DNA of 59,391 nucleotides from assembly GCA_001938485.1 (NCBI GenBank), contig MQRK01247609.1, positions 1 to 59,391 of the forward strand. Direction: 5' to 3'. Source of the stretch: Girardia tigrina (Eukaryota). The notes under the pieces were generated by a model, which was not told the DNA's origin, made no database searches, and saw nothing but the letters and a program-made list of their open reading frames with translations. The translations under genes were made by a program, and so were the position numbers. Positions 16,701 through 57,419 of this stretch are shown here, piece by piece; positions within the stretch are counted from its first letter, which is position 1; every line of letters starts with the position of its first letter.

Positions 16701-18016
16701 GTAATAATTCGGTTAGTTTTCAAACACATTCGTCTTCTCACGTAATTTTTGTTAAATAAATAAAATAATAAGAAAAAATAAAAAGCTTTTGATAATCTAA
16801 TAATTATGATTTACTCTATAAAAAGCTTTAACCAATTTCTTAATAGTATTATTTAGAAATGATACAACACAAGATCAAGGATAAGGATTAAATTGTTTAT
16901 AAAAAGAAACATTATATATTATAAAGTATGAGGCTTAGTTTTGGAGAAATACTTGGAGTAAAGTGGGTCCCAATTGGCGTGTACTCTTTCCAAATCCATC
17001 TCATTTCCTGTCATTAATGTAAAAAATCATAAAAGTAAATATTAATGTTGCCGACATTCATATAAGTCTACATTAAATATCGTAAGATTGTTGCATTAAA
17101 CCTTGTTTCGTTCTTCATTGTTTTCTATTTCCCTAAAATACAGACATTATATTCATCATATCTTTGATTTTTAGAACGACTGGCTCATTTTTTATGAAAG
17201 CAATATGTGATAGTGAAACAATGTTTGACAGAAAAATATTGTATTTCTTCTGTTATCTTCACCTTTCAGTCTCGTTCTATGTTTTTTTTCCTTCTTTACA
17301 TTTAGCGATTTCTGAAGCAATATTTCTAAAAGAAATTATTTGATAATTGTAATATACTGAAACTTATAGCTTGTTTACTTCGGTTCATAAGAATTGAAAA
17401 ACGTCGATTACTATTTATTATTAAAATATGAATATTATATTTTTGTATTGATATTTTATTTATATAAATAATTGTTTTTTTAATACATCATACCGCTATG
17501 TCAGTATTTGCCACTGAATATTCCGCATTTACACATTATTCGTACTTAGCATTGACATGTCCCATCCGAATTTAAGCATTTAACAAAATATTGCATATTT
17601 CAACTTCGATTTTATTAATAAATAAGTGTTGTCTATTTGTTTCATTCTGTATTTAAATACTTTGCTCGAGTAAGGGTACTTAGTAGTTTAAAAAATTTTA
17701 AACCATTTCGATTCACAAGATACATCAAATTCAAATATACTGTAAATTACTTTTAAATTTCAAATTATATTTCATTCCTGGGTAAGGGGGTTCCTGTTGG
17801 TATTTCAAGAAGCAGAAAACAATTTATTCCCATTTTCATATTCACATCTTGGTGAAAAAGCATTTTTTCAGTTGTTGCATTTTTAAAAAGAAAATATTGT
17901 AAGGAGCTCACAGTTGAAGCAAATCTGTGTTTCTATTATGAGTAGAAAATCAAACTTTAATGACTTTTATATAAAATAAAACGATATTATTTTTTCCATT
18001 CTAATTTATCAGCTTA

Positions 18017-18017
<1 letters not shown>

Positions 18018-18050
<33 letters not shown>
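18018..18050. repeat. (TA)n(TG)n compound microsatellite abutting the 5' truncation of the NeSL-like element
   Basis: Directly visible. Confidence 0.95.
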
Positions 18051-21000
18051 CTCCTTGGAATTTAGAAACCTATTTTTGAAGGCCTTTTACTGCCATAAAC
18101 GAAGTCGCCACAGATAGAAAAAATAAACCCTATAGAGTGCGGCTCCCACTGAAGTTCCCCGAATGTGAGCAACAGACAAACAATAATGACTGTGGTCCTT
18201 TTGTCTNNNNNNNNNNNNNNNNNNNNNNNNNNNNNNNNNNNNNNNNNNNNNNNNNNNNNNNNNNNNNNNNNNNNNNNNNNNNNNNNNNNNNNNNNNNNNN
18301 NNNNNNNNNNNNGATCGTCCTGCGGGAAGAACTGGGGGTGGGGACATTTCAGTCACTGAGATATCTAAAACAAAAGTTTATTCTAAAAAAATAAGTCAAC
18401 AGAAAATTAATGTATATAATACCAAAAGGGAAATAACTATGAACCTACGACTATTTGAATATTTCCAAATGTCGAATCTTATTGATATATTACCGCCTAA
18501 TGATAAGTGGCTTACCTTATCTACACAAGCCACTTGTCAAATTGCCAAAAATAATGAATCATATATAAAAAGTAATATATCCTATAAAATATTTATAAAT
18601 ATAGATAAAGTTTTTTGCCCGTTATGTATATCAGACTTGCAATGGATTCTNNNNNNNNNNNNNNNNNNNNNNNNNNCAACCATCGTTTATAATGTAATGG
18701 AATCCCTAACACTGGAACAAGAACTGGCAATCAACAGCATTAATGCTAATCTTCTCTCCTTCTTTCGATTAGGTGGCGAAGGTTGGATCTTGAAACAATC
18801 CATTGATTTGCCAACTTCACAAAAATTTGCAGAGAGTGGATACTGGATTGCCAACTCTATATGGAAATTGTATCACAACAACCCCCCCAACAATGATGTA
18901 CGAGAAATAATTTACAACATCACTAAAAAGAAAGTTCAAAAGAAAATTAGACGACAAGAAAAAACTATTAAAGAAAAGAATGACAGAGAATTGCGTTACA
19001 AAAAAATTTCAGAGATAATAGTGGCCAACTCCACAAAAAGTGCTGAAGAATTGGACTCTTTCATTACCAACTACATTTTGCAAGCAAGAGTTAAAACGGT
19101 CAAAAATCTCAATGCATCAAGAAACATCAGAAATATTAGAAAAAAAACGGATGTAAATCTACGACATTACTTTAAAATAAAACCGAAAGAAGGCCATGGA
19201 AATAATTTTAAGTGACACTACTGTTGATGGAGAGCTATCTTTGGAATCTCTTACAAATTACGCCAAATCAAAAAGCGACTATCCTCCTGAAACAGACTGG
19301 AGCAATGCGCCAAACATCAAACCTGCCCCAAAATTTCAATTTCAGCATGTCACTCCAGAAGAGATTGCCAACATACTCAAGAACACCAAAAATACTAGTC
19401 CCGGTATATCAAACATTGGCTATCCAGATATTGACTATTGCGACCCGGGTTGTCAATTTCTGGCCACATTATTTAATAAAATCATTGATACAGGAGTTAT
19501 TCCACCCAGTTGGAAGAAATTCCTAACGGTAATGACCCCTAAACCAGGTAAGTCAGGAAATTACAAAGATATAGGATCATGGAGACCAATAGCCCTGATG
19601 GAGTGCATTGCCAAGTTGTTCACATCTTGCCTATGTACTCAACTGGAACAATGCCTGGTGAAGAACAATTTAATTTCAAAGTTCCAAAATGTCATCGGAC
19701 CATCGGACGGGTGCGCTGAACACAATAACGTCATGAGAATTTTACTGGAGGAATATGAACATATTCATATTGCATTCCTCGATCTAACTGATGCATTTGG
19801 CAGCATTCCAATTAATCATATATTAGAAGTTCTCAGAAGAAAAGGTCTAGATTCATTCTCCTGCTCTCTCATTGCAAATCTGTACTCGGATTGTTCATCA
19901 ACAACATATACCTGCAATGATTGTATGACTGAAGACATATCCATCAGGAGGGGGGTTAGACAAGGATGTCCTCTTTCAATGCTGCTGTTCAGCGTTGGAA
20001 TTGATCCAATTTTGGCTGCACTACAAGATAATGATGCTTTTGGTATNNNNNNNNNNNNNNNNNNNNNNNNNNNNNNNNNNNNNNNNNNNNNNNNNNNNNN
20101 NNNNNNNNNNNNNNNNNNNNNNNNNNNNNNNNNNNNNNNNNNNNNNTGTGACATGGTTGAATGGACTTCTATGAAGTTTAACCCAGCCAAATGTGGATAT
20201 TTATCAACTCCTCTTATGAACGAATCAATCCATATTAATAACATACCAATACCTATAGTAACGGATTAAGAGGGTTACCGTTATCTCGGAGTAGACTTTA
20301 CCAGAAAGACAAAATTCACTCCTGAACGTCTATTTCTATCAGCTATTAAGGACTTGAAAAAAATAACCAAATCAATACTATTTCCCTGGCAGAAANNNNN
20401 NNNNNNNNNNNNNNNNNNNNNNNNNNNNNNNNNNNNNNNNNNNNNNNNNNNNNNNNNNNNNNNNNNNNNNNNNNNNNNNNNNNNNNNNNNNGAAACCACG
20501 AAGTCTATCTTTAAAAGCGGCCTTGACGTGGAAATTCGTCGTTACTTGAAGAAGATTTGTGGAACGGTCCCAAATTCATCCAATGATTACATTTATGCTG
20601 ACAAGAAAAAATGTGGTTTAGGTTTAGTCTCTGCCCGAGATGAATACGCAATACAATCTATAATTCAAGCGTACAGGAACATGGTGTGCTCAGACAAAAC
20701 ATCGTGTCATCTCACCTTTATCAATTTATTCAACACCCTAGACAGATATCACGGTACTAAAGAAGAATGGACACTCTCTGATCGCCTAAACTGGATCAAC
20801 ACAGGTGACAAAGAGAATGGATTTAAATCTTGGTGGACCAAGATTCGGAATTCAATCAAATACCTGAAAGGCATTGGGTTACAAATTCAGTTTGTCACCA
20901 ACGAGCTAGGTATTTGTTTAAAAGTTCACATATCCAATGATTCCATGATACTAAGTGAACTCTCAATAGACAGTATAACTTTCCACTTGCACAGAATATA

Positions 21001-21890
21001 TAACAAAATAAAATTTGACAAATGGAGCAAACAAAGGATGGCTGGAATGTCAGCCATCTCATTGGCAGAACACAACTTCAGCTCCAAAGTATTATACAAT
21101 GAGTCACTATCCATCGAGGAATGGCGCTTTTTACACAGCGCAAGGACAAATAGTTTACCAACAAATTATAAGCCGAAAAAACCAAGACAACAATCGATGT
21201 GTAGGGTATGTGGTCAAGATATAGAAACACAGATCCATGTTCTATGTTGGTGTAAACCCAACAGCACTCTGATACAGGTGAGACATAATGCAATCGCGGA
21301 AATCGTCACAGATGCTTTACTTGCAGAGAAACCAATTTTAAAAATCATCATGAATCGAGAGTGTGATTGGTCTGTGTCGGGAAGCCGGGTTGATTTATAA
21401 GTTTATAACCATGGAACCAAAGAACTCTGGCTTATAGATATAAAAACCCCTTATGACACTGTCAAAGCACTTAAATATGCCAGAGATAACAACAAAAAGA
21501 AATATAAAAGCCTGCTAACTGAAGCAAAGGCGGCTCATGAAGGATGGACTGTAATATTAGGAGCAATTGTTGTCGGCTGTTTAGGATCTTGGTCCGCCGA
21601 TAATGACAACCTGCTTAAAAACAAATTACATCTTTCAGGTACAAGTATAAAAAATTTAACCAAAATGTGCATAGTGTCGAATATCAAATATTTCAACTCG
21701 ACATGGCATAAACACAATAACGGTCAATATAACTCACTGATGTCAAATGCGGTGACGACAAATCTTATCGACACAGTCACGCCATATGCACCAGTAGCCG
21801 GTTGATAACAATAACAATAACACAAGTCAAAGATGCTCTATACAGCGACCATAGCTTTGAGCATCTAATGTATATCCCAGGATATCTTTA
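18051..21890 (+). mobile_element. NeSL/Utopia-clade RLE non-LTR retrotransposon, copy A (5'-truncated within a Ulp1 protease domain; RT, CCHC, PD-(D/E)xK endonuclease); pseudogenised
   Basis: Ulp1 Cys motif QQTNNNDCGPFV. RT motifs WRPIALMECIAKLF, GCAEHN, IAFLDLTDAFGSIP, GVRQGCPLS, KFNPAKC, YRYLG, LFPWQK. CRVCGQDIETQIHVLCWC...RHNAI; RVDL..LIDIKTPYD..KYK..GAIVVGCLGSW. One frameshift near 19195, stops at 20267 and 21398, ORF ends ~21805. The 3' boundary is uncertain. Confidence 0.92.
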
Positions 21891-22193
21891 CATATTTCAA
21901 CTTGAATTTTTGTCACAATTTTCTATAAATTTTGCACACTTACTCATTCTTGATCACCATAAATGATTATGTGAAAATTTGATCAAAACAACTGTCTAAA
22001 GTCACAGAATGGGAAATAAACGTCCAAAACGGAGTTCCTGGACAATATTATTTTAAAAAGATCTACTTATAAATTATTAGTAATTTATATTACGCAAAAA
22101 AGTAAATATAATGGTAATTTTCTCTTCTTCAAAAGATAACAAAGAGTTCTGTCCGCATAAAGAATGGTTTAAAAATTTTTTGATTTACTAGTT
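21890..22193 (+). repeat. 3' flank shared by both NeSL-like copies (counterpart ~51509-51830, minus)
   Basis: aaattttgcacacttactcatt...tgtgaaaatttgatc, ggagttcc, gagttctgtc(c/t)gcataaagaatgg and ttttttgatttactagtt occur in order downstream of both copies. Confidence 0.8.
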
Positions 22194-25289: not shown

Positions 25290-26095
25290 CTACGCATACA
25301 TTGACTGTATCATCAAATAATAAAACTCTTCTCCCATGACATCACCAATAAATGTCGTAAATGTGGACAATACATGGAAACCCCTATGCGCATCATCAAC
25401 GGATGTAATTACTCCTTTGACTTTGACACCATAAAGCACAACAAAATCAAGGACGAGCTGGTCAAATTTCGACGCAGAAAATTCGGCCATGACCTTGTTT
25501 CCGTTGAACAGCGACATGATTTCTTAGATAAAACCTGGAAAGCTATGGACATATATTTTGAACTAGGTAGCAAACTATGTATCATCGAAGTCAAGAGCCC
25601 ATGGGACGCAAACGACCAATTCTTTGACGCCTACACAAGAGCCTGCGATCATTACATAGACGTCTAAATGGACCTAATTGAAAGATACAACAAGAGCGAA
25701 GTAATGATTTTCCCTTTCGTCGTCGGTAGTCTTGGTCGATGGCACTACGACAACGATTCCCTTCTTCAAGCCATTGGATGGAATGACGTTGAAATACAAA
25801 CATATGCCACAAGAGTCGCCAGAAGAAATATCGAAATGTGTGCAAAACACTTTAGCTAACACCTATTGTACATATCAAATGAAGACATAATCAAAGATGG
25901 CACTGCATAACACCAAATTAGTCAAAACACTTCTAGTTTCATCCTATAAGAGGATGCAACTCCTTACCGATAGCGCAACAAGGATAGATGCGAAAGCAAA
26001 AATCTCTAAAATATGGAGTCTTCTTTAACTTCGTTAAAGACGTGACTCCCATTTGATTTGACCTAAGCGGTACACTTAAATTAAATTAAATTAAA
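25290..26095 (+). mobile_element. 5'-truncated RLE non-LTR retrotransposon (second family): zinc knuckle, endonuclease, structured 3' UTR, (TAAAT)n tail
   Basis: CRKCGQYMETPMRIINGC...KHNKI; DIY..IIEVKSPWD; FPFVVGSLGRW. In-frame stops at 25665 and 25857; ends ttaaattaaattaaattaaa. Confidence 0.85.
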
Positions 26096-26999: not shown

Positions 27000-28284
27000 T
27001 TAGGTGTACAACTAATTAATTTCGTATTTGTTACGAAATAACCTTATATTCGTATTTGTTACCTCATTTCATATTTGTTACCTCATTTCGAATTTGTTAC
27101 TAACCTCATATNNNNNNNNNNNNNNNNNNNNNNNNNNNNNNNNNNNNNNNNNNNNNNNNNNNNNNNNNNNNNNNNNNNNNNNNNNNNNNNNNNNNNNNNN
27201 NNNNNNNNNNNNNNNNNNNNNNNNNNNNNNNNNNNNNNNNNNNNNNNNNNNNNNNNNNNNNNNNNNNNNNNNNNNNNNNNNNNNNNNNNNNNNNNNNNNN
27301 NNNNNNNNNNNNNNNNNNNNNNNNNNNNNNNNNNNNNNNNNNNNNNNNNNNNNNNNNNNNNNNNNNNNNNNNNNNNNNNNNNNNNNNNNNNNNNNNNNNN
27401 NNNNNNNNNNNNNNNNNNNNNNNNNNNNNNNNNNNNNNNNNNNNNNNNNNNNNNNNNNNNNNNNNNNNNNNNNNNNNNNNNNNNNNNNNNNNNNNNNNNN
27501 NNNNNNNNNNNNNNNNNNNNNNNNNNNNNNNNNNNNNNNNNNNNNNNNNNNNNNNNNNNNNNNNNNNNNNNNNNNNNNNNNNNNNNNNNNNNNNNNNNNN
27601 NNNNNNNNNNNNNNNNNNNNNNNNNNNNNNNNNNNNNNNNNNNNNNNNNNNNNNNNNNNNNNNNNNNNNNNNNNNNNNNNNNNNNNNNNNNNNNNNNNNN
27701 NNNNNNNNNNNNNNNNNNNNNNNNNNNNNNNNNNNNNNNNNNNNNNNNNNNNNNNNNNNNNNNNNNNNNNNNNNNNNNNNNNNNNNNNNNNNNNNNNNNN
27801 NNNNNNNNNNNNNNNNNNNNNNNNNNNNNTATACAGGCAACAATTGATACGTTTAAAGCAAGCAATAGCCGAAAAACGGCCAGAATGGGCGACCAGACAC
27901 GAGAAATTGATTTTCCATCATGACAATGCTCGGCCACATGTTGCAGTAACGGTCAAAAATTATTTGGAAAATGCCGGATGGGAAATTCTACCTCACCCGC
28001 CTTATAGCCCAGACATAGCTCCTTCTGATTACCACTTGTTTCGGTCGATGCAGAATCACCTTTCAGGAATACGGTTCACCAATGTTGAAGGTATTAAAAA
28101 ATGGCTTGATGACTTTCTCGGCGCAAAATAATAGAAGTTTTTTTGGGATGGAATCCATAAGTTGCCTGACAGATGGGAAAAAGTTTTGAATAAAATATTT
28201 TGAATAAAATATTTTTTCACTTTTATACTTAAATAAATGGTTTTTTTAACAAAAAAATACGAAATTAATTAGTTGTACACCCAA
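27000..28284 (+). mobile_element. Mariner transposon (mauritiana-subfamily-like), middle masked by Ns
   Basis: TA TSDs; TIRs ttaggtgtacaactaattaatttcgtattt / aaatacgaaattaattagttgtacacccaa. Motifs HHDNARPH, PHPPYSPDIAPSDYHLFRSM, GIHKLPDRWEKV. Confidence 0.93.
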
Positions 28285-35580: not shown

Positions 35581-36766
35581 TTAGGTTGGAGAAAAGAAAT
35601 CCATTATTTTGGCGTGAAATTCAAAACTTTATTTAACATGTTTCGGATTGTCCTCTAGGAGTCAAATATGCACCGTTTTCTTGTATAATTATTTGCCATT
35701 TTGAAGGTAGCTTCATAATACCTCTCTCGTAGAAGTCTTGGTCCTTACTGGCGAAAAACTGTAGTAATCGATTATCAAAATCTTCTATTGAACCCAATTT
35801 CTTATCACTCAGAAAATTTTGCAATGCAAGAAAAAGGGGGTAATCGCTTGGTGCCAGGTCCGGACTATATGATTGATGCATTAAAACTTCCCAGACAAGC
35901 TCCCTGAGTTTCTGGCGAGTCACTACAGACGTATGTGGTCTGGCGTTGTCGTGATGGAACACAACACCTCTTCTGTTGGTCAATTCTGGTCGTTTCTCAT
36001 CAATTGCTATCTTCAAACGGTCAAGTTGTTGACAGTACAGATCTGAATTTAGTGTTTGGTCATACGGAAGCAACTCATATTAAATGATTCCTTTCCTGTC
36101 CCACCAAATACACAGTTAAACCTTCAAGGCCGTTAGTCCTGTTTTGGCGACCGTTTGAGGTGCTTCACCGTGCTTTGACTATGATCAATTTCGTACAATA
36201 TTGTCGTATGTGACCCATTTCCCATCCCCAGTAACCATCCGTTTAAGAAATGGGTCGATTTCATTTCGTTTGGCCAAGGCTTCGCAGATGGAAATTCGAT
36301 CCATCATGTTTTTTGGTGTTAATTAGTGTGGAACCCAAAAATCAAGTTTCTTTTTGAATCCTGCTTTGCCCAAATGGTTTAAAACCGTTTTGTGGTCGAT
36401 AGGCCTGTCTGTGCGAAGTGCAACCTTTAACATCAAAAATGCCTCCACGGAATCGACGAAACCAAAATTGCGTGTAATTAGCTGTTACAGTATTGGCACC
36501 ATAAACACCATTAACAATAACAGCTGCCTGGCTTGCATTTTCGCTTTTATCGAATAAAAACTGTAAAATGTACCGAAATTTTTCTTTGTTGACTTCCATT
36601 TTTAACACCCTGTAACTCAGAACTGAATAAAAAAAAGCAAAAAAATTTTGAGAAATTACTATGAAATGTTACCTTGACAAAGAGCAAAAATATGAAATTA
36701 TTTGATCGATAAATAATGAATTTAAATAATGGATTAAAATAATGGATTACTTTTTTCCCAACCTAA
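35581..36766 (-). mobile_element. Mariner transposon (mellifera-subfamily-like, different family from 6675-7952), internally deleted
   Basis: TA TSDs; TIRs ttaggttggagaaaagaaatccattatttt / aaaataatggattacttttttcccaacctaa. Motifs MEVNKEKFRYILQF, HHDNARPH, YSPDLAPSDY. Confidence 0.93.
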
Positions 36767-38749: not shown

Positions 38750-39679
38750 CTAATGATGAGGAAAAGTGAAATTCATTTCCCTGCCGTAATTGCATAAAAT
38801 ATTAAAGCATTCTCTGGCTGTTGGTCTTTCAGAAGGATATTTCTCTAAAGTTGACTGTATTAAATTTGCTATAGGTTTTTCATCTATGTTATCAATATAA
38901 TAGTTTTCCAATTCTCTGTTAATAGTTCGCCAGTAAAGTTCCTCGGTTTCATCACAGTTATCAAAAAAAGGATTAACTTTTGTATAAATAAAATGCATTA
39001 CAACGCCAGATGACCAAATGTCAACTGCAAAATTTTGAGGATGTTTTAACAAAACCTCTGGTGCCATAAATCCTTTAGTTCCAGCAAATCCAGTTTTTCG
39101 ATTATTCTTTTCATAAATATAAGATAATCCAAAATCTATAAGCTTTATTTTACGGAATACATTGTTTTCCTTAAAAATGACGATATTATCTGGTTTTATA
39201 TCGGAATGAATAACGGAATGGGAATGCAAATATTTCACCGCACTAAACAGTTGGAAAGCGATCTGAAATGCCGCTTGGTATTTAAAATGACCATGCTTCT
39301 GTACATCATCAAACAAATCCCCTCCATTTGCGTATTCATATAATATTGACTTGTCAAGTTCTTTATCAATAACCACCCTTATACCTTCGATTATATATTC
39401 ATGTCTTCCAATCTTTCGCAATATTCTAATTTCATTTTCTAGAAATTTGGGATTTCTGAATGTTTTTTGAATAACCAAATTATTTGTCGCCAGGTTTTCC
39501 AAAATATAAACATCAGATTGTCGCTTTTTTGACAACAAGGAGACAATTTTGTAATCATCAGAAATGTCTTCCAATGTATTTTTATATTGTTTGTTAAATA
39601 TACCAAGTAATTTTTTATAAGGGATGCCAAGTTTCTTTTCGGTTTGAAACATATTTTTAGATTTAATAAAACTGATCAT
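38750..39679 (-). CDS. Intronless Ser/Thr protein kinase, CAMK-group-like, non-RD, degenerate Gly-rich loop (309 aa)
   Basis: Uninterrupted ORF with VIQK, ENEIRIL, YEYANGGDLF, YLHSHSVIHSDIKPDNI, KLIDFGLS, GTKGFMAPE, DIWSSGV and PSERPTARE. Confidence 0.93.
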   Translation of the reverse strand: MISFIKSKNMFQTEKKLGIPYKKLLGIFNKQYKNTLEDISDDYKIVSLLSKKRQSDVYILENLATNNLVIQKTFRNPKFLENEIRILRKIGRHEYIIEGIRVVIDKELDKSILYEYANGGDLFDDVQKHGHFKYQAAFQIAFQLFSAVKYLHSHSVIHSDIKPDNIVIFKENNVFRKIKLIDFGLSYIYEKNNRKTGFAGTKGFMAPEVLLKHPQNFAVDIWSSGVVMHFIYTKVNPFFDNCDETEELYWRTINRELENYYIDNIDEKPIANLIQSTLEKYPSERPTARECFNILCNYGREMNFTFPHH

Positions 39680-44351: not shown

Positions 44352-46493
44352 TATTAGTGGTTCTTGGAACCTCGTCAGAATTATTAGTAGCAGACATTAA
44401 AACTTTTATTATACAACAAAAAAATGTTTAAATCTAATATTTAAACAAATTTATTTTTTTGAGAAACTATTTATTTCATAAATCTTAAACCGATATAGAT
44501 AAAATATACTTATAAATATTCATATTTGATTTTTTAATTACTTATATAAATCAATTTTAAATTACGATAACATTTTAAAATATTTAATCGTTCCATTTAA
44601 TTTTATTACTTTTTTTTAAAATCGTTTCACATAAAAATTATACACTTTTTTTTCCTTTTTATATTATATTAAAACTCTCAAAAAAATTTTATTAGCAATT
44701 TAATTGATCTTAATTTTAGTAATTTTATTTTTTTTCAAACGTTACATTTAATTATATAAAAAGTTTAATTTGTACATATTTAATATAACCTTCTATCAAA
44801 AATTTTCCTAACATTTTTAATTCCTAACATTCCCCCTTTTCTTTAAAATTTTTGAACTTTTCGACATTTCTTACTATTTGTTTTTTCTCTTTATCCTCCA
44901 GTTTATAACTCCTNTCATGAATTTTNTCTATGATGGTNTATGGTCCCTCATATCTGTCATCATCTTTATTTCTTATCTCTTTTTTTACCCACACCTGATC
45001 TCCGATATTGAAATTTCGTTGTGTTTTTCCGTCTGGATACTTGATGTTTTCGTCTGACATGTTCATTTTATTGCTATACAACTTTAGCCTATCTATTTTT
45101 CTATTTAAAATTACTTCAGCCGGACTTCTTCCAATTGTTTTCCGTCGTGTTGCATTTAATGTGAATTCCACCTCTGGGAGCATATCAGCCCAACTCGTCT
45201 CTTTTCTTTCTTTTAAACTTGCTTGTATATACTCTCGTATCGTTCGGAATTGTCTTTCCACCNNNNNNNNNNNNNNNNNNNNNNNNNNNNNNNNNNNNNN
45301 NNNNNNNNNNNNNNNNNNNNNNNNNNNNNNNNNNNNNNNNNNNNNNNNNCCCACAATCCACATGTATTTCCTTAGGAGCACCAAATTTTAATATCCATTT
45401 GTCAAAATCGTTTGCATAATCGTCTGTTCATCTTGTCGTTTGATGGCTGTTAAAATGATATATTTGCTGAAATGATCAATCATGGTCATTATATATTTTT
45501 CTTTTCTTATTGTTTCTCTCCATGGGCCACATATATCAATGTATACTTTCTCAAACGGTTCAGAAGATGTTATCTTGATTGTTTCTTCTTTAGTCTTCGA
45601 TGTATCTGTTTTTGTTCGTTGAAATTCTATACAAGTTCCAACTACTTCTTTCACTGTATTCCGTTCCTCTTCCATATCAAATTTATCCTTTAAATAATGG
45701 TAAGCTTTTTCTGCTCCTGCATGACATAGCAATCTATGTGTCTGTGTGATTAATTCACTTCTTTTCTCTTTTGGTATCCCTTCTCTGTGTGCTTCTTTTG
45801 CCTGACTTCTTGTTGTAACCGCTAATAATCGTGTGTTAAGTCTGTCTGATTTTGCGTCTTCATGTTGCATTTGGCACTGGGTATATGTGTCACATTTGCT
45901 TCGAGACAGCATATCTGCATTTCCATGTAATTCACCTTTTCTGTATACCATCTCTATATCTAAACTACTGAGATAATTGATCCATGTCTGGAACAGGGTT
46001 GTTATTGGTTTTTTTGTATGTAACATAAAAGTGATGGCTTTATGATCTGTCCGTAGTTTAAATCTTTTCCCATATAAATAATGATTGAAATGTGGACAGA
46101 AATAATAAATGGCCAAAAGTTCTTTTCTAGTTATGCAGTATCTTTTTTCATGAGCTCCCATAGAATGTGAGTCATAAGCTATAACGTGTTCTCTTTCCGA
46201 TTCGCCAACTTGTGACAATACTGCTCCTATACTATCAAAACTGGTATCCGTATCCAAAATAAACTCTTTATTGAAGTTTGGGAATGCTAAAATTGGGGCT
46301 GTTATGAGGGATTTCTTCATATCGTTAAAAGCTAGTTCACATTCGTCCGTCCATACTAGTTTATCTTTATTCGATCCGCATAACCCTTCTAACGCCCTGG
46401 CCTTTTACAATTTAATTATATAAAAAGTTTAATTTGTACATATTTAATATAACCTTCTATCAAAAATTTTCCTAACATTTTTAATTCCTAACA
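44352..46493 (-). mobile_element. Ty3/Gypsy LTR retrotransposon, internally deleted (5' LTR remnant 46405-46493; RNase H and integrase; PPT; 3' LTR 44352-44829)
   Basis: APILAFPNFNKEFILDTD, CITRKELLAI, RTDHKAI, NADMLSR, HRLLCHAG, VYIDICGP, IDHFSKY, VERQFRTI, GPY-like YEGP. PPT aaagaaaagggggaa precedes TGTTAGG. 5-bp TSD cgtat at 44347-44351 and 46494-46498. Confidence 0.93.
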
Positions 46494-47044
46494 CGTATAT
46501 CAAATCCAGTACCTTTCTTCACCGTCATCTAAAATCAATAGTACGGGATTAACCAGTTGATCAATGACAATCATTGTTAACTTTATTCGTTTGTTTTTAT
46601 AAATAATATGTATATAAACGATATGTTGTGTAAAAAAGTAAAAAAAAAACAAGACCGTGTAAAATTAAATTCAAATTTTCTGTTTTGAATTGTTATCAAA
46701 ACATTTTATCGTGGTGACTCATCGAGACAATAATTGTAATCGAGTGGCAGTGTATAGATGTGTGCCAAATATATTTTCTCCATCTGTAATTGCTACCACC
46801 GTTCGTCGTGTATTCGTATGTTGGAGTGATCCGTTAACTGGCGTGCACAAGGTTGTTTGTTTGTATTTAATTGATTGTTTAGACTAATGTGAAATTTGAA
46901 CGAAACCTTGAGTTATCTTTATGGATTTTTTTTGGATGTTTGCTTTGTTAGTGGAACTGAACCGTGTTTTTTATCGGTTTGTGTTCGAAAGAACTGAAAT
47001 TGATTTAATTTTGTCAAAGTTGTCAGATGTTGAAGTTTGAAATA

Positions 47045-48213
47045 TTAGGTTGTCCTAAAAGTTCCCGGTCAATAATGAAAATACATTTTTTTTTAATTTC
47101 TTTTTGACATTATTTATTTGATATTGATATATATCGATTTATTTATAGCATTATACGGACTACGAGATTACAAAGCTTGAAATCCGTGTGTTGCTGCGTC
47201 ACTATTGGAAGAAAGGCTTGTCAACACGAGATGCTCCCAAGGCAATTTGCAAAGTTGAAGGTACACAAACGGTCGGAAAAAGTACGGCAATTGATTGGTT
47301 CAAGCGTTTCAATAAAGACAACTTTGACTTGAATGACAGTCCTCGTTCTGGACGACAAACAAAATTGGATAACGATGACTTTCAAGCAGAGTTGGACATG
47401 AAGCCTTCGCGATTTGACATTTAAGCTTGCAGTTGACAAGTAAACCATACATTGACATTTGAAGCAGTTCGACTTTGGGCACAAAAAACCGCGTTAAGAT
47501 CCACACGAATTTACCAAAGCACATGCCGATAAAAGAGTCCAAATTTGCCGACAACTGCTACAGAATCCACAAGATGACCGCTTTTGAAAACGAATTGTGA
47601 CATCGGACGAGAAGTGGGTCTACTTGGTCAACCAAACCGATACAAGTTATGGGTTCCACCGGGTCAAGCAATGTCGTCAGTTCCAAAACAAAATCGATTT
47701 GGATTGAAAATCATGTTGTGCGTCTGGTGGAACTTTGACGGAGTTATGCACTTTGAGTTAGTTCAGAACGGCCAGGCCATCAATGCAGAGCTCTATTGTC
47801 AACAGTTGTACCGTGTCTACGAGAAGCTCAAGAAGAAGTACCCTGGCTTAATCAACCGAAAACGTGCACTGCTTCCGCAAGACAATGCGGAGCCGCATAT
47901 CGCCAAAAGGATCACGGGCAGGTTCCATGAGTTGGATGGAGTTGAAATTCTGCCGCATCTTGCTTACAGTCCTGATTGCGCTCCATCCAAATATGACCTC
48001 TTCCGATCCATGCAACATTTCTTGAAAGGCCGCCGATTCAAAACATTCGATGAAGTTTTACAAGTATGTCAAGAGCTCTTCAATTCTAAGCAGCCGGAAT
48101 GGTATTTTGACCAGATATATACTTTGCAGATTAATTGTTATTTATTTAAAATATATTCTTGCACAAAAAATTCTACTTTTCATTCTTGACCGGGAACTTT
48201 TAGGACAACCTAA
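47045..48213 (+). mobile_element. Mariner transposon, copy 1 of a family also at 56027-57236; pseudogene
   Basis: TA TSDs; perfect 28-bp TIR ttaggttgtcctaaaagttcccggtcaa. Motifs IVTSDEKW, IMLCVWW, QDNAEPH, YSPDCAPSKY. Confidence 0.95.
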
Positions 48214-49970
48214 TAAAATTTGATCCCGGTTCGAAATTAATGAATTTTCTATCGTTTCAAATCTTTAATCTAATTGCGTTTTAAGTTATTAAGAACACCG
48301 ATTTGACTTTTCATATTTTTATTAACACAACAATTTCGATTGTCCTTAAGACAATCTTTGTCAAAGCTTTCGTACGAGTGCATGCCTAACTAAATAATTT
48401 AATAATTAAATAATATTAATATTAAAAAATTAAATAATATTAATATTAATAATAATTAAATAATTTAATAATTAAAAATAAAAATATTTTTTGTCAACAA
48501 ATAATTGTTTATATTTTGTTAAAAAATTTATTTTATTGTCTATAAAATAATTTTAAAAATATATTTTGTATATTGATTCTTTTAGTCAAAAAAACTGATA
48601 GAAAATAATAACAGGGATACATAATCATTTAAATTTAATCTGGTTTTATTCTGAAATTTTTCAATCTTTTATTATTTAGAACAATAGATTTTTCATGTCA
48701 AAAGATATCTTTAATCTGTCTATTTATTATACACTATCAGATGACGACTTTTTCTAAAGATTTCCTGGACTATATATTCTTTTTAATTAATTAAAGCATT
48801 TAAATAGCTTAGAACAATACTTTTTGTTAGGATTTAAATATTTTTGAAATGTGGAAAATGGTTTGGGGTCAATGATTAAAAGCAGTTTTGATGATATTTT
48901 TATAATATACATAATACGATTTCAAATTTTATATTTACAATAAAAAATAATTTAAAAGTTATTTTATATTATTTAAAAGTTAATAAAACAAAGATTATAA
49001 GAACAATTATAAAGAACATTTATAATAAGTCTCCTCGACTATGACGGATAAATTTGTTTAAATAGCAAACTATGATACTAAGCATTTACAAACAGAGTAG
49101 TGAATCATAGAGTCTGTATCGGTCGGAAACCTAAAAAAAGCAAGAGTTCTGATCCTCTCACACGACTTTGGTTTCATAAGGCTTTGACTTAATACGCAAA
49201 CTGAGTGCAACGGAAAAATATATCCAAAGAGACATCTTTTCTTCCGCTATATTATCCAGTAGAAATCTAAGCCAAGTTCTGGATCGCTGCCCTCAGCAGC
49301 ACTACAGACACTGGCACATAAATATTTAAGATCGGATTCAAATAATCTGTACGTCATTGTTTTGAGATTTCTTGTTCATTTACGGTACTATTATTACCAT
49401 TAACATTTATTCGATGATCATCTAAAATATGTCTTTACAATCATCCTTTGATTTTATAACTTTTGTGGCAGTTTTCAATGGGGAATATATAAGAATCACT
49501 CTGTCGCTGAGGCGCCAATTCAGAAAATGTGTTCCTCAATATATTTAGATTTCTGCTGACATGATTGATATTGAAATTAAGGATCATCTATATATATGCC
49601 AATCTATTGACTTTCATTTCAGCATCACTTTCGTCAATGAAGCTTATTCCGCTCGGGAAACTTTTATGTATAGTCGTTTTAATGACTTCGTCGAAAACCA
49701 AGTTAAATAAATAATACCCTATCAAAAATTTCTGTTTGACCTCTCTTTCAATGAAAAATCGCTATTCCCCACAGAAGTAAAAAAAATTCTCATGAAATCT
49801 TTTAATCAGACAAAGATTTTTGCCGGTTAAACTGATTATTTTTAGGCTTGTCTTATTTATTATTTTAATAGTTTAAATTTTCAAATATCTTAAAATGTAA
49901 ATTATGATTGAACAATCAATTTAAATTTCCCAGTTATCTTTGGATGGATTTAGACTTTATTTTTCTAATA

Positions 49971-50785
49971 TTAGGTTGGTCGAAAAATAATGGCGGTTTT
50001 GGGACACAAACTTCAAAGACGTGCAAATTCACAGAAACAAAAGTTTATTAATCAAAGTATGAACCGTTGGCATCAATACATTTTTGCCAACGAGAAACAA
50101 ATTGTTTTATTCCATCAGCATAAAATGCATCGGTTCTCGAAGCGACGAATTCTTGGAAAGCATTTTGAGCATCATTTTGCTTTTTGAAAATTTTTTCACA
50201 TAGGAAGTTGTACAAATGCCTGAAAAAGTAGAAGTCCGTTGGCGAGAGATCTGGTGAATATGGTGGATGAAGCAGGGTTTCATAGCCCAACTCATTAAGN
50301 NNNNNNNNNNNNNNNNNNNNNNNNNNNNNNNNNNNNNNNNNNNNNNNNNACTTTTTCGATTGACCAATCCCGGACAAAGGGTTTTCATTTTTTATGCATT
50401 TCATCAATTTCATGACAGTACCTCTCCGCTGTGATTGTTTCACCTGGATTCAAGAAACTATAGTGGATAATTCCAGCATCTCACCACCAAACTGTCACCA
50501 TAACCTTACGGGGTGTTAGTTTCGGTTTTAGAAAGTGTTTCGGTACTTCATCTTTGTCCAACCACTGTGCAGATCGACGTCCGTTATCATACAGGATCCA
50601 TTTCTCATCACAGGTAACAAAACGATCAAGAAATGGATCGTTTTTATTGCGAAGATGATTGACAGAACAAATTTCATAGCGTCGGTTCTTTTGATTTTCA
50701 TTCAAATCATGTGGAACCCATTTATTGATTTTCTTGATTTTTCCGACGTAGATGTATAATTTTGATATGGAAACAGTGAACAAGT
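49971..50785 (-). mobile_element. Mariner transposon (cecropia/Hsmar1-like), 3' two-thirds only
   Basis: TA + TIR ttaggttggtcgaaaaataatggcggtttt. Motifs WVPHDL, VTCDEKWILYDN, VMVTVWW, HPPYSPDLSPTDF, RWQKCIDANGSYFD. Confidence 0.92.
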
Positions 50786-51302: not shown

Positions 51303-51829
51303 TTATTAAATAATTGATTAAATCAATTAAAAAAAAATAAAAAATCGCAAAAAAATCGAGAATAAAAGAATGATTTGAACAAATATATTTTTTACAGAAA
51401 TATCAAATCATTTCGAATTGTGACAGTCATTTTGAGAATATTTACACAATTGTTATTACAGTGATATTTATTATTTATATTTATTTTTTTAAATAGATAA
51501 GTAAAATAAACTAGTAAATCAAAAAAATAAATTTTTTATATCCATTCTTTATGCAGACAGAACTCCACTTTGACAACAAAGTTTTTAAAATTTAAAAAAA
51601 TTTAATTAAAAAAACATTAAAAATTAACATAAACTACATATAATTTATAAGTATATATCTTGCAATTAATATTGTTCAGGGAACTCCAAATTTTCCGTTT
51701 TTTCCCATTTTGGGACCTTAAAAAGTTTTTTTCGATCAAATTTTTACATAATCATTCATTGTCATCGAAAATGAGTAAGTGTGCAAAATTTGGAGAAAAT
51801 TGTGACAAAATTTCAAGTTGAAATACGTT

Positions 51830-53804
51830 AAGATATCCTGGGATATACATTGAATGCTCAAAGCTATGGCCCCTATATAGAGCATCTTTGACTTGTGTTG
51901 GAGATTAATGTTATTAACCGGCTACTGGTGCATCTGCCGTGACTTTGTCGGTAAGATTTGTCGTCAACGCATTTGACATCAGTGAGTTATATTGACCGTT
52001 ATTGTGTTTATGCCATGTCGAGTTGGAATATTTGATATTCGACACTACGCACATTTTGGTCAAATTTTTTATAGTTGTACCAGAAAGATGTAATTTGTTT
52101 TAAAGCAGGTTGTCATTATCGGCAGGTCAAGATTCTAAACTCGACAACAATTGCTCCTAACATTACAGTCCATCCTTTATGAACCGCCTTTGCTTCAGTT
52201 AGCAGATCTTTATATTTCTTTTTGTTGTTATCTCTGGCATCTTTAAGTGCTTTGATTGTGTCATAAGGGGTTCCATGGTTATAAACTTGATAAATCAACC
52301 CGGCTTCCCGAAACATACAATCATACTCTCGATTCATGATGATTTTTAAAATTGGTTTCTCTGCAAGTAAAACATCTTTGACGATTTCTGCGATTGTATT
52401 ATGTCAGGCCTGTATCAGAGTGCTGTTGGGTTTATACCAACATAGAACATGGATCTGTGTTTCTATATCTTGACCATATACCCTGCACATCGATTGTTGT
52501 CTTGGTTTTTTCGGCTTATAATTGGTTGGTAAACTAATAGTCTTTGCAGTGTGTAAAAAGCACCATTCCTCAATAGATAATGACTCGTTGTAAAGTACTT
52601 TGGAGCTGAAGTTCTGCCAATGAGATGACTGACATTCCAGCCATCCTTTGTTTGCTCCATTTGTCAAATTTCATTTTGTTATAGATGCTGTGCAAGGGGA
52701 AAGTTATATTGTCGATTGAATATTCACTTAGTATCATGCAGTCATTGGATATGTGAACTTTTAAACAAATACCTAGCTCGTTGGTGACGAACTGAATTTG
52801 TAACCCAATGCCTCTCAGGTATTTGAGTGAATTCCGAATCTTGGTCCACCAAAATTTAAATCCATTCTCTTTGTCACCTGTGTTGAACCAGTAAGCTTGA
52901 ATTATAGATTGTATTGCGTATCCATCTCGGGCAGAGTCTAAGCCTAAATTTTTCTTGTCAGCATAAATGTAGTCATTGGATGAATTTGGGACCGTTCCAC
53001 AAATCTTCTTTAAGTAACGACTAATTTCAAAGTCAAGGCCGCTTTTAAGGATAGATTTTGTGGTTTCGTGGTGGCCTTAATCCTTAAGTTACCTGTTTGG
53101 TTTATTATAATTTCGAAAATAGAAGGTGAATCGTGAGTGTATAAAGATTCTATACGCTTCTATTTTCTGCCAGGGAAATAGTATTGATTTGGTTATTTTT
53201 TTCAAGTCCTTAATAGCTGATAGAAATAGACGTTCAGGAATGAATTTTGTCTTTCTGGTAAAGTCTACTCCGAGATAACGGTAACCTCCTTCGTCTGTGA
53301 CTATAGGTATTATTATGTTATTAATATGGATTGATTCATTCATAAGAGGAGTTGATAAATATCCACATTTGGCTGGATTGAACTTTATAGAAGTCCATTC
53401 AACCATATCACATGCAGATGAAACCATGGCTTGTAAACAAGAATTGCTGGTTGCAACTAGTACAATATCATCTACATATGCCAGACAAGTAATCTTACCA
53501 GCCTCGGTGTCAATACCAAAAGCATCATTATCTTGTAGTGCAGCCAAAATCGGATCAATGCCAACGCTGAACCACAGCATTGATAGAGGACATCCTTGTC
53601 TAACCCCCCTCTTGATTGATATGTATTCAGTCGTACAATCATTGCAGGTATATATTGATGAACAATCCTAGTACAGATTTGCATTGAGAGAGCAGGAGAA
53701 TGAATCTAGACCTTTTCTTCTGAGAACTTCAAATATATTTTTAATATATGATTAATTGGAATGCTGCCAAACGCATCAGTTAGATCGAGGAATGCAATGT
53801 GAAT
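51830..53804 (-). mobile_element. NeSL/Utopia-clade RLE retrotransposon, copy B (5'-truncated in RT, several internal deletions)
   Basis: Roughly 90% identical to 19763-21890. It supplies LAYVDDIVLV and PWQKIEAYRIFIHSRFTFYFR, which are masked in copy A. C-rich junction (cccgcccccc) at the 5' end. Confidence 0.92.
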
Positions 53805-54520: not shown

Positions 54521-56026
54521 AATATTTTAACAGGGAAATATATTATAGCAATATTTTTTGATAAAGTGACAAAAAAGGATCCTTAGTGAAAAATAATAAT
54601 AAAAAATACATCGTTTATATTGAATACTAGTTTTTTCTTAAGTTCTCTCTTATCAGTTTTATATACAGTTTTATTCATTTAAAAAATAATGAACATGTAA
54701 GCAGCTGTCTTTTCTCTCAAATATGCAATTAACAAAAATTAAAATGTTTTAACTGACAGAATTTATTCATAATTCTCAAAGTGAGAATGGTAAAAAAACA
54801 ATCAATTCCGAGTAAATTGTACTTCAGTTTTATTTGTTTGTATTTGTTGTTTTTTTTTGTTTAAAAGGAAAATAAATAATTAAAACAGTGTAGTTATTGA
54901 CAAATTATAAAAAAATAATAATATAAAAAATGTTTATGTTTGTCAAATATGGAAGGACATTTCTTTTCTGAATTCAAGTTTTATTTCTCAATAAAATAAA
55001 TTTTCAAATAAACTTTTTTTGTTTGTTTTATTAAATTTTCAAATATTTTAGAAGTAAAAAAAATAATTTAAATAAAACATTTTTCAGTGATAAATTAACG
55101 TGACAAAAGAAAGAAGGAAAAAACCCATTCAGACAATTAATTGTTTATTAATTTATTATTTTTATATTTTCTTTCATCAAACAAACAAATGACTTTTGTT
55201 TTATTATTGAATAAAAATTTTATTTTTATTTTTTTCGAAATAAAAACGTTTTTCTTCTACATAATTAATGATTAATAAAAAAATTAATATTTTACCTAGA
55301 TGTTTTTTGGGTTTTTTTTAAATTTCAAAGCTCATTAGTTGCCCGTCTAAATTGTATAAATTGAAATAAAATTTACATAAAAATTACAAAAATTACCCAA
55401 TATTAAATAATGTATTCCTTATGTAATTTTTATTTCATTCGGATAAAAATTAGTAACAATTCGTTCAAAAAAGGAAAAGAATTAAATTGTTTTAGAAAAT
55501 AAATTCATAATTTATGTAAATTTCTATTCAGAAACTAAATTATTTTCAACAATAAATAAAAAATAATTATTTTTAAACTCGGTTTTTGTTGTTGATTTTT
55601 CAAAAAATTATTTTTCATAGAAAAATATTACGGCTTATATTTAAAATATTTTATGGGATTATTTATTGGAATTATATTTGATGTTAAAAATTGCTCTGAG
55701 TAAAGAATAATTTGAGAAAAGTATATACAGAAAAATAAATTTTCAAAAATAAACACTATAAAAAAGATTTTCATGTTTCGTGAATATAAAATGCATTTCT
55801 TTTTTAAGATGGAAAAGAAAGGAAACATTTGGTCTTTCGTGTTTCTTTTTTACTCTCTGGTCTTCTATACGTTTGCTATCATGGAGTACTCAGATTTAGT
55901 TAGATATGAAAATAAATTTGAAAATTTTCCTAAACCTTCCTAAAACCCCAAGAGATGGTTTGTGTCAATATTTTTGCGAAAAAAATCATCATCGCCTTTC
56001 TACAAGGCGCTCTGAGAGCTTATCTA

Positions 56027-57236
56027 TTAAATTATTCTAAAAGTTCCAGGTCAAAAATGAAAAATACAATTTTGTGTGCAAGAATTTATTTTAAATAAAT
56101 AAAAATTAATCTTCTAAGTACAGTCCATCGTTTTCGACTACTTTCTGCCAATGGTCTGCAAGCTTTCGGATCTGGTCAAAGTTCAATTCCGGCTGCTTCG
56201 CATTGAAGAACTCTTGACATACTTGTAAAACTTCATCGAATGCTTTGAATCGGCGGCCTTTCAAAAAGTGTTGCATGGATCGGAAGAGGCCATATTTGGA
56301 TGGAGTGCAATCAAGACTCTAAGCAGGATACGGCAGGCTATCGACTACATCCAACTCTTGGAACCTGTCCAAGATCTTCTTGGTGGTATGCGGCTTGGCA
56401 TTGTCTTGCTGAAGCAGCCTACGTTTTCGGTTGATTAAGGCAGGGTACTTCTCCTTGAGCTTCTCGTAGACACGGTCAGCTGTTGACAATATAGCTCTGC
56501 ATTAATGGTCTCGCCGTTTTGAACCAACTCAAAGTTCCACCAGACCCTCAACATAATTTTTAAGCCAAATCGATCTTGTTTTGAAACTGACGGCGTTGCT
56601 TAACCCGGTGGAACTCTTCACTTGTATCGGTTGTGGTTGACCAAGTAGACCAACTTCTCGTCCGATGTCACAATTCGTTTCCAAAAGCGGTCATCTCGTA
56701 GATTCTGTAGCAGTTGTCGGCAAATTTGGACTCTTTTATTGGCCTGTGCTTTGGTAAATTCGTGTGGATCTTAACGCGGTTTCTTGTGCACAAAGTCGAA
56801 CTGCTTCAAATGCCAATGTATGGTTGACTTGCCAACTACAAGCTTAAATTGTAAATCACGAGTGCTAGACGAAGGCTTCATGTCCAACTCTGCTTGAAAG
56901 TCATCGTTATCCAATTTTGTTTGTCGTCCAGAACGAGGACTGTCATTCAAGTCAAAGTTGTCTTTAGTGAAACGCTTGAAAAAATCAATTGCCGAACTTT
57001 TTCCGACCGTTTTTGTACCTTCAACTTTACAAATTGCCTTGGCAGCATCTTGTGTTAACAAGCCTTTCTTCCAATAGTGACGCAGCAACACACGGATTTC
57101 AAGCTTTGTAATCTCGTAGTCCGTATAATGCTATAAATAAATCGATATATATCAATATCAAATAAATAATGCCAAAAAGAAATTTAAAAAAAAATTGTAT
57201 TTTCATTATTGACCGGGAACTTTTAGGACAACTTAA
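56027..57236 (-). mobile_element. Mariner transposon, copy 2 of the 47045-48213 family; pseudogene
   Basis: TA TSDs; right TIR ttgaccgggaacttttaggacaacttaa, left TIR decayed (ttaaattattctaaaagttccaggtcaa). N-terminus LLRHYWKKGL...DSPRSGR. Confidence 0.94.
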
Positions 57237-57419
57237 TACTATGACTTGAATGTCTGATCTATATAAACCATTCTACTTTGAGATCATTTATTGTTATGCT
57301 ATATACGTGATATCAGATTTTTTAAATTCACAGTTGGTACTTTCTCTAGTTGTTGATGTAAAATTAAAATTAAAATCAGTTTATATTCAATAATTTATTC
57401 AAAAATTATTTGTTTAAAC

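Follow-up and report, generated by a model that had tools for sequence, protein, structure and literature searches.

Two copies of a non-LTR retrotransposon in a 59,391-nt stretch of the Girardia tigrina genome (contig MQRK01247609.1; here called the window) are followed by one and the same sequence, which raises the question whether that sequence belongs to the element, was duplicated together with it, or is a target into which the element inserts. Our analysis favours the last of these. Hundreds of copies of the family share a single position and orientation, some 80-100 bp into a high-copy non-autonomous Helentron (HINE), most likely because the predicted endonuclease of the element recognises the site and primes reverse transcription there, a reading to which we give a probability of roughly nine in ten.

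Structure of the locus

Copy A (plus strand) and copy B (minus strand) can be aligned from the reverse transcriptase (RT) to positions 22193 and 51509, respectively, where the alignment ends (Table 1). An earlier note made from the sequence alone had described the two copies as colinear past the ORF, with conserved islands in the shared flank and no poly(A) tail, and all of this is borne out. Identity falls as reported there, from 266/288 (92%) in the ORF tail and 99/112 (88%) over 21805-21915 to 225/299 (75%) over 21916-22193, but the element ends about 110 nt past the stop codon (21915/21916) and not about 130. What had been missed is the 5' half of this target, which directly adjoins the 5' end of copy A and is composed, in order, of a T run, the 5' subterminal inverted repeat (subTIR), a (TA)n/(TG)n microsatellite and a conserved block reaching up to the insertion site. 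The 5' end of copy A has 5 nt of microhomology to the target, and its ORF is interrupted by stops and frameshifts as well as N gaps. No Pfam detection was obtained for its CCHC/endonuclease region.

Table 1. Features of the retrotransposon copies and their HINE targets in the window
Feature	Position	Strand	Evidence or remark
HINE target, 5' part	17994..18091	+	blastn of empty copy L047 to window; empty copies
Copy A, RLE non-LTR retrotransposon	18092..21915	+	5'-truncated ~2.75 kb into the ~6.6-6.8 kb element
Ulp1-like protease region remnant, copy A	18095..18205	+	tblastn to L135 ORF
Reverse transcriptase domain, copy A	19544..20029	+	PF00078, E 3.8e-16
CCHC knuckle and PD..D-type restriction-like endonuclease region, to stop codon	21199..21805	+	alignment with U2-flanked relatives; translation
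3' UTR, ~110 nt, without poly(A)	21806..21915	+	kept in element copies, missing from empty targets
Fixed 3' junction	21915..21917	+	C at 21916 assignable to element or target; 21917 is the target's polymorphic A/G
HINE target, 3' part	21916..22193	+	island 22144-22167 with 3' subTIR, AT-rich hairpin, end ACTAG then TT
Retrotransposon copy B, from RT to 3' UTR, internal deletions	51803..53804	-	target 5' half not seen upstream
HINE target, 3' part, second independent copy (copy B)	51509..51802	-	88% to empty copy L047

Several other repeats and one gene-like ORF lie in the window. They comprise a C-terminal fragment of another, distant retrotransposon with a restriction-like endonuclease (RLE) at 25305-25742 (21% identity, E 1e-4), an intronless protein kinase ORF of 309 aa at 38750-39679 on the minus strand (PF00069, E 1.7e-46), and a broken LTR-retrotransposon RNase H/integrase fragment at 44824-46404, also on the minus strand, with short direct repeats at 44742-44829 and 46405-46493. 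Decayed mariner-type copies were found at 47043-48215 and 56025-57238, which are 86% alike and have terminal inverted repeats (TIRs) of about 50 bp each, and also at 27800-28130, 35633-36079 and 50048-50780.

The flank is a separate high-copy repeat

In the 1.43-Gb assembly searched, the 24-nt island of the flank is matched exactly 2,734 times, whereas a 24-mer taken from the end of the ORF has 321 exact matches. Exact matches numbered 1,768 for a 30-mer spanning the empty site, 1,833 for a 26-mer at the 5' terminus of the target and 577 for a 22-mer at the filled 3' end, and reversed control patterns gave 0. The first 30 matches of each pattern, in contig order, were fetched as loci. Among those fetched with the island, the junction was empty in 19 and filled in none, and could not be recognised in 11. 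Scaling by the fractions of exact matches (19/27; 2/29; 2/30) gives an estimate of about 800 for the filled sites and of some tens of thousands for the targets, figures that hold to an order of magnitude only. The flank thus exists without the element, as the 1,768 exact empty sites show, and is not found only attached to it as a long 3' UTR would be; the suggestion in the earlier note that the family targets another multicopy sequence is thereby supported, that sequence being the HINE.

The flank had not been recognisable as U2, 28S or spliced-leader (SL) sequence, and the Rfam search agrees, since it gave only below-threshold miRNA-family matches, all of them in one of six target loci. An RNA-gene target and a 5' ribozyme were rejected on Rfam results of this kind.

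The target is a non-autonomous Helentron

By its sequence features, the target is a HINE family of ~380 bp. T runs mark its sharp ends, most copies contain a (TA)n microsatellite, and a 7-bp 3' hairpin is located 11 nt from the end (in the empty copy L047). Its real inverted repeat is a perfect 10-bp subterminal pair, one member of which is set back a few nt from the 5' end and the other about 35-45 nt from the 3' end. TT follows the 3' end at all 29 loci where this end was found (30 examined), and the 5' boundary is T-rich at 30/30 loci, the last two T having belonged to the search pattern. The palindrome aaattttgcaca...tgtgaaaattt, which had been taken for the arm of a non-autonomous DNA transposon, is present, but it is internal to the target rather than its terminus and is less symmetric in other copies. 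That proposal was right in kind, the transposon being a rolling-circle HINE and not a TIR/MITE arm; the TIR/MITE reading of the palindrome was rejected.

The target was identified as a Helentron because a decayed Rep/PIF1 Helentron is framed by the same ends. In locus L268 the first 254 bp and last 65 bp of the target surround a 5.9-kb Rep/PIF1 gene in a decayed state; Helitron_like_N and PIF1 are both hit between the target ends, the Rep motif is RGSPH, and the insertion site is empty. This is the one complete case among 50 stretches around Helitron_like_N hits; a second, partial case (L302/L303) has Rep-Hel pieces followed by the target 3' end. On this arrangement, the retrotransposon and the Rep/helicase gene would have the same orientation, with the insertion about 90 bp from the 5' end. 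Upstream of Rep, L268:2550-3139 contains Cys and His motifs with no Pfam hit, which are reminiscent of the herpes-tegument-type deubiquitinase of some Helentrons. An intact canonical Helitron Rep/helicase ORF of 1,518 aa with the Helitron-type L motif was also found (L251, G000 C238346), and no target ends were seen around it.

DINE-1/HINE elements are described as having subTIRs of 12-15 bp, a 3' hairpin, a microsatellite and TT at both ends, and the S in the RG(S)PH motif of Rep is diagnostic of Helentrons (PMC4067079, Thomas et al. 2014). The target resembles this description in its subTIRs, 3' hairpin, microsatellite, TT at both ends, structure as a Rep/helicase deletion derivative and S in RG(S)PH, and differs in that its subTIR is 10 bp and perfect, not 12-15 bp (PMC4067079). 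Unlike the described Helentrons, L268 has no endonuclease seen after the helicase (PMC4067079).

Fixed 3' and variable 5' junctions

Of 30 loci anchored on an ORF motif, 24 enter the target at the same base, one keeps only the first 7 nt of target, two have other flanks and three lack the 3' end. After removal of duplicates (two identical pairs), 22 of 25 distinct 3'-ended copies join the HINE at the same base, and the remaining three 3' ends are off-target or near-target. A second set, anchored on the last 22 nt and partly overlapping the first, has the same junction in 26/29. The junction is not an assembly artefact, since contigs of runs X2, X6 and X10, from two studies, hold it as well.

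All fetched loci together provided 89 distinct target 5' halves, of which 64 were empty, 18 filled and seven other, proportions that are not a census because the loci came from different anchors. The 18 filled ones divide into nine with a full-length start and nine truncated at nine different points, and in all of them the element joins the HINE within a few bases of one target position. Compared with empty sites, full-length copies lose 1-2 target bases and truncated ones a few more, with no duplication. The target 5' half was not seen at 6/16 long loci or at copy B, and several of those loci have N gaps. Judged by sequence, the 5' junctions look like TPRT products.

At the same HINE site, two loci (L064, L085) hold short hybrid elements, in which a diverged 5' end of about 200-450 bp is joined to the family's 3' end. 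These are possible non-autonomous partners.

The retrotransposon and its U2-inserting relatives

The full-length element measures about 6.6-6.8 kb and encodes, in order, an Ulp1-like protease (PF02902, E 3.3e-12, in two stretches of the L135 ORF), RT (PF00078), a CCHC knuckle and RLE, the CCHC and R(V/P)D...D(I/V)K motifs aligning with relatives. It therefore has the NeSL-clade layout, with RT followed by CCHC and a PD..D/ExK-type endonuclease and no APE domain. The 5' regions of five of five copies contain no N-terminal C2H2/CCHC pattern and no Pfam finger, and the pattern is likewise absent from the L402 ORF and the L407 N-terminal ORF. About 27 nt separate the first ATG from the 5' junction. 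A public 868-aa uninterrupted RT-RLE protein (P0001) is 96% identical to the family. Contigs of the RNA-labelled runs X2 and X6 cover 30/30 element bins and not the L268 Rep/helicase interior, and are silent on transcription, start sites and level.

In an RT tree of 51 rows, the family, its closer sister and the L402 and L407 families form one clade (100/98), nested in a 100/100 group with the U2-flanked L305 and L308; the tree is without named Repbase references, holds few non-NeSL RLE outgroups, and has the sister row represented by 19% of columns. L305 and L308 are metagenome relatives that adjoin U2 at the canonical Utopia position. The L402 and L407 families are Ulp1-RT-RLE families of the same genome, in which we found 18 U2 matches, and adjoin 5'-truncated U2 genes at about nt 29-32. 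This placement with U2-abutting host families upholds the NeSL/Utopia-like identity first proposed for copies A and B. The family is most likely a target-switched element of the Utopia lineage, and the ancestral target of the lineage was probably U2.

The U2-inserting families of this genome comprise L402 (22-4386), L403 and L408, and L407, L400, L405 and L406, one of them with an intact 1,455-aa ORF. Their junction at about nt 29-32 is upstream of the canonical nt 38/39 site. The 5' region of host U2 is unusually divergent (L384, L385 and L386; G000 C64257, C228290 and C117480), and its branch-site pairing stretch and canonical Utopia site differ from the metagenome U2 in L308. The closer sister family (L404, L409, L414-L419) has 57% identity over RT-RLE; its T-rich tail occurs at three unrelated flanks in six hits, and thus a weakly specific stage may have been part of the switch. 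About 170 bp behind one U2 gene there is a sister copy, which stands in tandem with a related 5' end.

None of the 18 U2 loci matches the RT or 3' end of the family at the DNA level. In one long U2-containing stretch (L413), an N-terminal piece with 86% identity lies some 2.7 kb from U2 and is followed by HINE sequence. The HINE target has no significant likeness to U2. A U2-derived or U2-like target, suggested by the likeness of GGCCTTTT...ATCAA, was rejected: of 400 shuffles, 41-83 attained the best local scores obtained with the 5' end of the L308 U2, and 182-357 attained those obtained with host U2. A separate comparison pointed the same way.

Independence of insertions and alternative explanations

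If the flank were a long 3' UTR and the "empty" copies SINE-like derivatives of it, the ~390 nt that copies A and B have in common after the stop codon would follow directly. The empty copies, however, extend upstream into a block matching window 18016-18091, directly 5' of copy A, so that what precedes them is the sequence found 5' of the element in filled copies, and they have Helentron ends and an autonomous partner. This split-target anatomy refutes the long-UTR explanation, whose probability we consider negligible. Another alternative is that rolling-circle transposition (Helentron capture) multiplied one or a few old insertions into a HINE as a composite, without sequence targeting. HINEs are mobile and carry cargo (PMC4067079), two loci have internal deletions (L120, L123), one filled unit is in tandem (L027/L028), and a Mantel test (r 0.18, p 0.06) leaves room for a minority of copies having spread as a HINE-plus-insert unit. 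Against this, the filled target halves are as diverse as the empty ones and 2.4 times more diverged than the element: in 59 filled copies the last 72 nt of the element differ by 6.3% and the first 72 nt of the target by 15.3%, the latter differing by 13.8% in 48 empty copies (2/61 filled and 2/50 empty copies, with first 72 nt less than 72% alike to the reference, were dropped). Filled and empty HINEs are interleaved in their tree, with 33 label changes against 35.4 when shuffled (109/500 shuffles as low), in a short (152 columns), star-like and weakly resolved tree with 12/104 branches starred, and a single filled clade is rejected (AU p 8.4e-45). The mixing in the tree and the rejection of one filled clade indicate that insertions were independent, and the roughly twofold divergence of the target over the element indicates that the HINE burst preceded the element. 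In a pairwise comparison of 51 filled copies in which the target end is complete, none of 1,275 pairs has a target half more than 93% or an outer flank more than 80% alike, which also removes the segmental duplication of A and B that the earlier note had held out as an alternative. Both target alleles were found with both UTR subtypes of the element, and each of the nine different 5' truncations leads back to the same target position. Composite amplification is therefore largely refuted, and we regard it as very improbable.

A further alternative holds that the enzyme has just a short, loose motif preference, or that a bound protein or some DNA structure attracts it to the HINE, the specificity being an apparent one that results from the abundance of HINEs. 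Two off-target 3' junctions that still run on with CAAT/CGAT (L069, L089), the lack of a detected N-terminal C2H2 finger and the ~14% divergence of the targets used are in keeping with it. A motif of 4-6 nt, on the other hand, is expected millions of times in 1.43 Gb, whereas 22/25 copies use one base in one family, and tethering would still be targeting by another route. We judge this explanation slightly less probable even than composite amplification, and recognition of the HINE site by the endonuclease remains the preferred reading.

Some HINE subfamilies carry inversions in their interior or, early in the sequence, an inverted copy of the 3' end (L142, L145, L076, L080; L045, L058, L154), and filled copies are present in these as well.

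Putative mechanism and significance

By analogy with R2 and Utopia (PMC4640811, PMC13188248), the RLE would nick the bottom strand at the 3' junction, where TPRT begins, and top-strand cleavage or microhomology joining 1-7 nt upstream would then give the 5' junction with its small deletions. Expression of the element is probably by read-through from the target or its flank, because the first ATG is so close to the 5' junction, again by analogy with these systems (PMC4640811, PMC13188248). An ancestrally U2-specific lineage that switched to the HINE would have gained tens of thousands of dispensable sites in place of a handful of essential genes, the HINE burst putatively serving as a large, harmless target pool for the element.

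Known targets of the NeSL clade include U2, SL, 28S, tRNA, (TG)n and a U2-derived satellite, with occasional Polinton neighbours (PMC4640811); the latter are LIN25/LIN26 copies next to Polinton sequence in supplement S6, the sole supplement covered, which has no Helitron entry, and supplement S1 could hold other flanks (PMC4640811). Like Utopia, the family has a single ORF with RT, CCHC and RLE and junctions that are precise on the 3' side and variable on the 5' side (Kojima and Jurka 2015, PMC4640811), and groups with U2-flanked elements; the absence of TSD is shared with arthropod Utopia and the Ulp1 domain with Utopia-1_TSP and nematode NeSL (PMC4640811). It departs from Utopia in having the HINE and not U2 as target, hundreds of copies and a site without significant likeness to U2, and no N-terminal C2H2 finger was found in it, whereas one to three N-terminal zinc fingers are the general rule in Utopia (PMC4640811). 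NeSL sensu stricto likewise has the N-terminal Ulp1-like protease but inserts into nematode spliced-leader genes and not into a Helentron derivative. Target switches within the clade are also seen in NeSL-1 and planarian LIN/R5 (SL exon, 28S, tRNA, (TG)n, U2-derived satellite), whose main targets, unlike the HINE, are RNA genes or simple repeats, the families being compared here by description (PMC4640811). Our search of the literature found no Helitron-targeting RLE element.

Another parallel comes from Xenopus. Its Tx1L and Tx2L are non-LTR retrotransposons that occupy a fixed site in a non-autonomous DNA transposon, as the present family does; the endonuclease of Tx1L is of the apurinic type and its host element moves by cut-and-paste, whereas the enzyme here is an RLE and the host a rolling-circle transposon. 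On balance, we favour the view that this is a Utopia-lineage RLE retrotransposon without N-terminal zinc fingers that became a sequence-specific parasite of a rolling-circle transposon family, and the first RLE element with a Helitron-type main target, alongside siblings in the same genome whose target is a divergent U2, entered at a shifted site.

The targets known for RLE elements are, for the most part, conserved RNA genes or simple repeats. With a target that is itself a mobile element, drifting and present in high copy number, strict site specificity would be seen to shift to non-conserved DNA and sustain a burst of hundreds of copies, and the hundreds of junctions in polymorphic targets would offer a free map of the recognition sequence. 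If this is true, the family and its U2-targeting siblings form a natural series in which the determinants of RLE specificity could be sought; with siblings of the same domain plan inserting into U2, the choice and change of RLE targets would become directly testable, which bears on R2-type gene-insertion tools.
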